From: Escherichia coli
Lineage (GTDB): Bacteria > Pseudomonadota > Gammaproteobacteria > Enterobacterales > Enterobacteriaceae
Strand: one strand, 5' to 3'
Length of the DNA stretch: 64,000 nt
Assembly (NCBI RefSeq): GCF_003018115.1
Contig: NZ_CP027457.1
Shown: one piece after another, positions 48,297 to 48,340 of the stretch
Numbering within the stretch: the stretch's first letter is position 1
Layout of the letters: the number at the start of each line of letters is the position of its first letter
Notes under the pieces: model-generated
Databases searched by the model: none
What the model saw: the letters and a program-made list of their open reading frames with translations, nothing else
What the model was told of the DNA's origin: nothing
Translations under genes and position numbers: made by a program

Positions 48297-48340
48297 GCGA
48301 ATCAGCGAATCAGCGAATCAGCGAATCAGCGAATCAGCGA
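48297..48340. repeat. tandem octanucleotide repeat (GCGAATCA) x5 plus partial unit
   Basis: Read directly from the sequence: GCGAATCAGCGAATCAGCGAATCAGCGAATCAGCGAATCAGCGA. Confidence 0.95.

Follow-up and report, generated by a model that had tools for sequence, protein, structure and literature searches.

Perfect tandem repeats of short units can act as switches of gene expression or can simply change length without consequence, and the octanucleotide array at positions 48297-48340 of the Escherichia coli DNA analysed here (a stretch of 64,000 nucleotides of contig NZ_CP027457.1, hereafter the window) raises the question of which of the two applies. The original prediction described a slippage-prone tandem octanucleotide of five units plus a partial unit, located in an intergenic stretch of a CP4-like element, and suggested that it might be a contingency locus modulating a promoter or an unannotated short ORF. 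We consider it likely, with a probability of roughly three in four, that the array is a VNTR that is hypermutable yet neutral in function, its neutrality being judged from the absence of detectable targets.

The array itself is the following feature:

48297-48340, no strand assigned: VNTR, identified by Tandem Repeats Finder (TRF) and a lag-8 self-match run, with 3-16 units at the same locus elsewhere

Direct reading of the sequence gives five perfect GCGAATCA units followed by GCGA, the unit being TGATTCGC on the minus strand, and the partial unit runs on as GCGATCA (48337-48343), a degenerate copy from which the seventh base has been deleted. TRF reported period 8, 5.5 copies, 100% matches, a score of 88 and the consensus GCGAATCA, making the array the top-scoring tandem repeat of the window (the runner-up scores 59). 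The self-match run at lag 8 extends over 36 bases and ends at 48340, compared with a longest run that averaged 10 and reached at most 15, at any lag from 4 to 20, in 100 dinucleotide-preserving shuffles, so that head-to-tail copies are present beyond chance. Two further tandem repeats of the window have only two copies each (60586-60625, 20-nt unit, TRF score 59; 19494-19526, 17-nt unit, TRF score 52). The predicted structure of the array is thus borne out, as is its intergenic position, since it is not covered by any credible gene; the attribution to a CP4-like element is reasonable, given that the island encodes a P4-type integrase (55463-56680), AlpA and a DUF3987 protein.

Among 5426 complete E. 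coli genomes, the same locus was found in 1, that of strain 2014C-4135, which is STEC O113:H21, ST-223 (PMC9453080). This closed genome carries 10.5 copies versus 5.5 in the window, with identical flanks. Thirteen more assemblies were recovered through contigs encoding exactly the neighbouring zinc-ribbon and Gp2-like proteins, which brings the sample to 15 assemblies overall, with 2014C-4135 as the one typed strain among them, and in these 13 the units were counted on the minus strand as TGATTCGC after the constant TGATCGC. Twelve of them contain 3, 5, 6, 7, 7, 8, 9, 9, 10, 10, 13 and 16 units, respectively; the remaining one, L020 (GCA_018134245.1), has a mixed array at 3955-4018, composed of five copies of TGATTTGC followed by three of TGATTCGC, with the variant units clustered as local duplication by slippage would produce. 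Exact look-ups of the ORF products specific to each allele added alleles of 11 and 14 units (on 11 and 6 contigs, respectively) and returned 9 contigs for 5 units, 48 for 8 units and 10 for 10 units. They were negative for alleles 3, 6, 7, 9, 12, 13 and 15-22, some of which were seen in DNA; a look-up of this kind only adds alleles, and a negative does not imply that an allele is absent. In total, eleven length alleles (3, 5, 6, 7, 8, 9, 10, 11, 13, 14 and 16 units) plus one mixed array were collected.

The alleles differ by whole units only, with unchanged junctions, and the flanks are either identical or a few SNPs apart across the assemblies. Over 3,953 aligned flank positions, assemblies sharing one identical haplotype have 5, 5, 7, 8, 10 and 16 units, those with a second haplotype 3, 6 and 9 units, and those with a third 9 and 13 units. 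Because identical flank haplotypes are associated with many lengths, the array must change far more rapidly than its surroundings acquire point substitutions. The array-length diversity index was 0.94 in the sample, an upper estimate in which distinct alleles are over-represented because the contig look-up shows similar places once. Whole-unit copy differences between conserved flanks, from 3 to 16 units in 15 assemblies, are what defines a VNTR, and the proposed proneness to slippage is confirmed by this range among assemblies with near-identical flanks; the copy number compared among related strains varies, and the invariance that would have spoken against the proposal was not found. The chance that the differences are an assembly or sequencing artefact of short reads is negligible: most of the assemblies are indeed short-read drafts, but the arrays, at 24-128 bp, are below typical read length, all of them are perfect and have identical junctions, the closed genome has 10 units, and several alleles are each supported by numerous independent contigs (48 carry 8 units, 11 carry 11 units and 10 carry 10 units).

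Whether these length changes matter depends on what surrounds the array. Besides the proteins named above, the island encodes a 620-aa protein of unknown function, and on the minus strand its array-bearing module consists of the gene for a Gp2-like protein, two zinc-ribbon genes and, finally, a block of DNA containing the array, beyond which the first gene-like feature in the 3' direction is an rpn pseudogene:

49661-50254, minus strand: Inovirus-Gp2-like / YagK-YfjJ family protein, 197 aa, first gene of the module (Pfam and PGAP)
48907-49290, minus strand: zinc-ribbon protein 1, 127 aa, intact, DUF7828 plus Zn_ribbon_11 (ORF and Pfam)
48483-48910, minus strand: zinc-ribbon protein 2, DUF7828 plus Zn_ribbon_11, frameshifted pseudogene (alignment, PGAP and Pfam)
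48228-48482, minus strand: conserved, unannotated, hairpin-rich non-coding block with the array inside (homology alignments and fold)
47528-48072, minus strand: pseudogene of the Rpn family (recombination-promoting nuclease / putative transposase; tblastn and DNA homology to rpn)

The Pfam matches of the Gp2-like protein are below the curated cut-off, and its name is the one given by PGAP in a near-identical record. The two genes flanking the array are both decayed. In zinc-ribbon 2, a 113-aa ORF lines up with the intact 141-aa homologue solely from its residue 51 onwards, and a different frame encodes the N-terminal 57 aa, with the shift after about residue 50; consistently, PGAP labels this gene of strain 2014C-4135 as 'frameshifted'. 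When compared by tblastn with an intact 313-aa Rpn, the rpn pseudogene shows a match to residues 3-49 and, in a different frame, another to residues 124-258, with residues 50-123 (74 residues) deleted, two in-frame stops and the C-terminus lost; in the near-identical RefSeq record, it is annotated merely as two 'hypothetical proteins'. Further to the left of the module (45527-47344) are remnants of an IS66 transposase and of an autotransporter beta-barrel, together with an intact SdiA-regulated-domain gene (46514-47344, plus strand), next to the lactate-utilisation genes; the left end of the island is thus a mosaic of fragments. On the other side, a perfect inverted repeat of 18 nt, with a loop of 3 nt (CCCTGCTAATTTTGCTAA / TTAGCAAAATTAGCAGGG; 51491-51529), is located between the gene for the 620-aa protein and the Gp2-like operon. 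The island layout in L020 (positions 1-3000) differs upstream of the Gp2-like gene, with a DUF3987 gene versus the 611/620-aa protein in the other assemblies; the VNTR-bearing module is therefore present in at least two island backbones.

The suggested contingency (phase-variation) locus would require the units to switch the frame of a short plus-strand ORF or to alter a nearby promoter. The tract is hypermutable, its copy number varies to a very high degree among near-clonal isolates, and its 8-nt unit shifts the frame. On the minus strand, every unit contains TGA, and three units stop all three frames. On the plus strand, none of the three frames is interrupted within the array (ANQRISES...), and GGAG is found 11 nt before a GTG at 48274. 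For copy numbers from 0 to 17, however, the plus-strand ORFs crossing the array have weak start codons, this GTG or TTG 48284, and end 14-34 codons past the array, for a total of 14-84 codons; all frames downstream stop within these limits, and no copy number yields a substantial protein. Frame translations of these ORFs gave no Pfam match, and the ORFs are not conserved, because the indels in the block between lineages (2, 7, 11, 28 and 33 nt) include non-triplet ones. Thus, the array is not inside a functional ORF. Each allele nevertheless gives rise to a different short ORF deposited as a separate 'hypothetical protein' (48274-48442, plus strand, in the window; 6374-6508 in locus L001), the deposited products of 44, 52, 60 and 68 aa falling into one 90% cluster, with 1-48 contigs each. 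Such allele-specific entries are a small source of spurious protein families and call for caution in databases.

The case for a promoter is similar. A perfect TTGACA at 48285-48290, 6 nt left of the array, is the only −35-like hexamer, but the sequences 16-18 nt past it (CGAATC, GAATCA or AATCAG) do not resemble a −10 element, and since the array begins 6 nt after the hexamer, this context is identical for every allele. A consensus scan detected no sigma-70-like promoter in the block of the window, CFT073 or G3X16-2, the array is ruled out as a −35/−10 spacer by its length of 24-128 bp, and the nearest downstream genes on the minus strand are dead, so that the array does not appear to be at the promoter of a functional gene. 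With no terminator in the block (the nearest minus-strand terminator-like site is at 48034-48022), the sequence suggests that transcription of the operon probably continues across the array. An array of operators or half-sites was also considered and rejected: the island contains no further copy of the unit motif, and its sole other copy in the window (21395) is within chance expectation. Iterons or other arrays of regulator sites, which have units of about 17-22 bp in fixed number beside an origin or promoter and a motif reused elsewhere in the element, were rejected as well, the unit here being 8 bp, its number highly variable and its motif absent from the remainder of the island.

The part of the original prediction concerning a contingency locus is accordingly not sustained, there being no live gene, credible ORF or promoter tied to the array, and we regard this function as very unlikely. 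With pseudogenes on either side and neither a promoter nor a real ORF that relies on it, the array most likely changes length without being seen by selection; an array that is both neutral and hypermutable would therefore behave like a typing marker of the MLVA kind.

The block that hosts the array deserves separate consideration. It comprises approximately 250 nt and begins directly after the stop codon of zinc-ribbon 2, with homology to other islands ending at approximately 48228. At about 70% identity, it is present in 989-1312 of the 5426 complete E. coli genomes, mostly without annotation and always after the same paired DUF7828/zinc-ribbon genes of P4/CP4-type islands (for instance, at 4001-4260, 4001-4231 and 2501-2780 of the comparison loci L002, L003 and L005, respectively). 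Beyond it, the islands differ, carrying a second YagK/YfjJ gene, McrBC or IS elements, and the block therefore marks the edge of a conserved module. The sub-blocks on either side of the array are near-invariant, the left one corresponding to 48228-48296, and three inverted repeats can be recognised:

48272-48296, minus strand: left-flank hairpin TGTGGT-TAATTGAC-ACCACA, in the conserved left sub-block; it holds the TTGACA hexamer
48344-48361, minus strand: hairpin CGGTGCG-CTTT-CGCACCG, adjoining the array, in 9 of 10 lineages
48380-48424, minus strand: long inverted repeat with a stem of approximately 15 bp, ATCCGGTG..TCGC / GCGA..CACCGGAT (RNAalifold helix)

Since roughly one in five E. coli genomes has it in conserved form and conserved hairpins are abundant in it, the block probably has a function, and the array probably interrupts or spaces it. 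One reading that would give the array a role is that it forms a length-variable spacer in a functional cis element, either a structured 3' UTR or leader RNA belonging to the Gp2/zinc-ribbon operon or a single- or double-stranded DNA site recognised by a protein, for which the Gp2-like (replication-initiator-like) or zinc-ribbon proteins would be the candidate binders; a variable run of half-sites replacing a palindrome might then adjust protein binding, antisense pairing or the stability of the mRNA. Consistent with such an element are the frequency of the block and the near-invariance of its sub-blocks, and also the fact that the unit is one arm of an ancestral 19-nt palindrome and that the module encodes a protein related to gpII of filamentous phages. 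The minus-strand RNA of the block folds with an MFE of −84.4 kcal/mol, more stable than shuffles (z = −2.3). The variants of the hairpin at 48344-48361 (CGTACC, TGTACC and GGTGTG) pair as G.U on the minus strand only, which may be weak evidence for an RNA of that strand, there being no compensatory double changes in this hairpin, and the changes in the helix at 48380-48424 (RNAalifold columns 8-25/46-61) are all one-sided and mostly of the G.U type on the minus strand.

Against this stands the lack of covariation: RNAalifold identified 0 compensatory double changes on the minus strand and 1 on the plus strand. A structured RNA could thus be demonstrated on neither strand, since hairpins are predicted yet the covariation term is close to 0. 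No Rfam family matches, as searches of Rfam 15 with the block and array yielded nothing at the gathering threshold, nor at E up to 5 in the window, and those with three homologous loci nothing at E up to 1. Exact scans of species-representative genomes gave 0 matches for the left-flank motif and 24 for the right-hand 19-mer, the latter including 13 Campylobacter MAG contigs, none accompanied by the block and hence due to chance or unrelated; these genomes therefore offer no divergent homologues for covariation analysis. Scans with flank plus repeat gave 0 exact matches in viral contigs and 0 in JGI metagenomes. Furthermore, the rest of the island is devoid of the unit or half-site, the range of 3 to 16 units without a preferred class looks unconstrained, and the lineage of the window has lost a hairpin region and has a frameshift in the adjacent zinc-ribbon gene, which suggests decay rather than tuning. 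Taken together, a spacer role of this kind appears rather unlikely. The bolder version, in which the block would be an undescribed cis-acting element (a structured RNA or an origin-like site for the gpII-like protein) whose central palindrome has, in the O113:H21-type lineage, been replaced by a slippage-prone run of half-sites, with an activity varying stochastically between cells, is highly improbable; were it true, the fate of the operon mRNA or the replication or excision of the island would vary between cells.

The block could also be the remnant of a second coding sequence of the YagK/YfjJ family, with the array inside an old pseudogene. In CFT073-type islands, an 80-codon ORF starting in the left sub-block has a YagK_YfjJ_C C-terminus (Pfam E = 4e-6, profile positions 120-167), tblastn with Gp2 proteins gave E = 2e-5 for its tail, and the minus strand contains faint motif-like strings (LHFIWCF; RHRISAVLL) with a roughly family-like spacing. 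The Pfam match, however, does not reach the part that the window shares, being confined to DNA on the left of this part, and neither any of the three frames of the block nor a hand-repaired frame extends it; in addition, the stop codon of the zinc-ribbon gene is too near for a full-length gene, and the motifs are approximately 20 codons out of register with the profile. For the part of the block shared with the window, a YagK/YfjJ pseudogene was thus unsupported by tblastn with seven Gp2/YagK proteins and by Pfam searches in all frames. We consider such a remnant unlikely, and whether or not it is one, the VNTR would remain neutral. The CFT073-type ORF of 65-80 codons itself consists only of a YagK/YfjJ C-terminal tail (minus strand; 2319-2561 in L005, 2319-2516 in L006 and 1319-1561 in L052), located directly after the block and before a further gene for a 188-aa protein with a YagK/YfjJ domain, and looks like a remnant of gene duplication or recombination.

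Comparison with the other lineages offers a plausible route to the neutral VNTR. At the array site, their minus strand reads TGATCGC-TGATTCGC-C-GAATCCGC (aligned consensus ...GCACCGTGA TCGC [T/G]GATTCGC C GAATCCGC ACTGTGG...), which amounts to an imperfect 7+8-nt direct duplication followed by an inverted half that completes a 19-nt palindrome. The ancestral palindrome is GCGGATTCGCCGAATCCGC, and that of CFT073 is GCGGATTCG-C-CGAATCCGC; in strain 2013C-4081, the degenerate copy TGATCGC precedes one full TGATTCGC unit. The 7+8 duplication and the palindrome are present in 2013C-4081, CFT073, WP3-W18 and ChlosBP-23-1. In the window lineage, the inverted half is missing and TGATTCGC is present in 3-16 copies. 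We suggest that the array was born by replication slippage (slipped-strand mispairing) in the non-coding spacer of a decaying P4/CP4-type island module, in an E. coli lineage that includes STEC O113:H21 ST-223. The pre-existing imperfect 7+8 duplication would have seeded the first slippage event and, once at least three perfect units were in place, whole units would have been gained and lost frequently. The window lineage has also undergone a 33-nt deletion of a hairpin region kept by every other lineage and has TAA in the left sub-block versus TCA in the others; along with the two flanking pseudogenes, these changes may be read as signs of relaxed constraint.

How does the array compare with known repeat loci? 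The VNTR loci used for MLVA of EHEC consist of short perfect head-to-tail units, gain and lose whole units, and display many alleles among isolates that are nearly identical by SNPs; prophages, islands and non-coding DNA are frequent settings for them, and most have units of 6-7 bp or multiples of 3. The array resembles them in its perfect short units, whole-unit changes, many alleles and location in non-coding DNA of an island, but differs in its 8-bp unit and in that its island was found in only 1 of the 5426 complete E. coli genomes. The EHEC loci carry names such as O157-n / Vhec, EHC, EH26 and EH111 (PMC10062581). The doubled unit was not found on either strand in the open-access literature, and the locus appears not to be an established typing locus. 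Searchable literature on the function of the YagK/YfjJ/DUF7828 module, on octanucleotide phase variation and on EHEC MLVA likewise contained nothing on the array locus or on the function of the module.

Contingency loci of Haemophilus, Neisseria and Campylobacter are built on tetra-, penta- or heptanucleotide repeats or homopolymer tracts in ORFs or promoters, where they occupy the 5' part of a functional ORF or lie between, or just upstream of, promoter elements. The array shares with them a hypermutability by slippage and a unit length that is not a multiple of three, so that each step shifts frame or helical phase; unlike them, it is tied to no functional ORF or promoter and is flanked by pseudogenes. 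In Mycobacterium tuberculosis, phase-variable tandem repeats in gene promoters have been proposed to act as an adaptive switch (PMC12817950). The likeness to the repeats described there lies in a copy-number change in non-coding DNA, and the difference in that no promoter or live downstream gene can be identified here.

If the host block were functional, the array would rank among the few instances of simple-sequence phase variation in this species, yet nothing found points there. As a neutral VNTR, it is a clean example of how such loci are born, with an imperfect 7+8-nt duplication beside a palindrome expanding after the neighbouring genes decay. Its main value, however, would be as a high-resolution typing marker for the O113:H21-type lineage, since this single locus has at least 12 alleles, which differ among isolates with identical flanks of approximately 4 kb. 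O113:H21, a LEE-negative STEC serotype, is linked to haemolytic uraemic syndrome (PMC9453080), and the array could sharpen outbreak typing or serve as a within-host clock.
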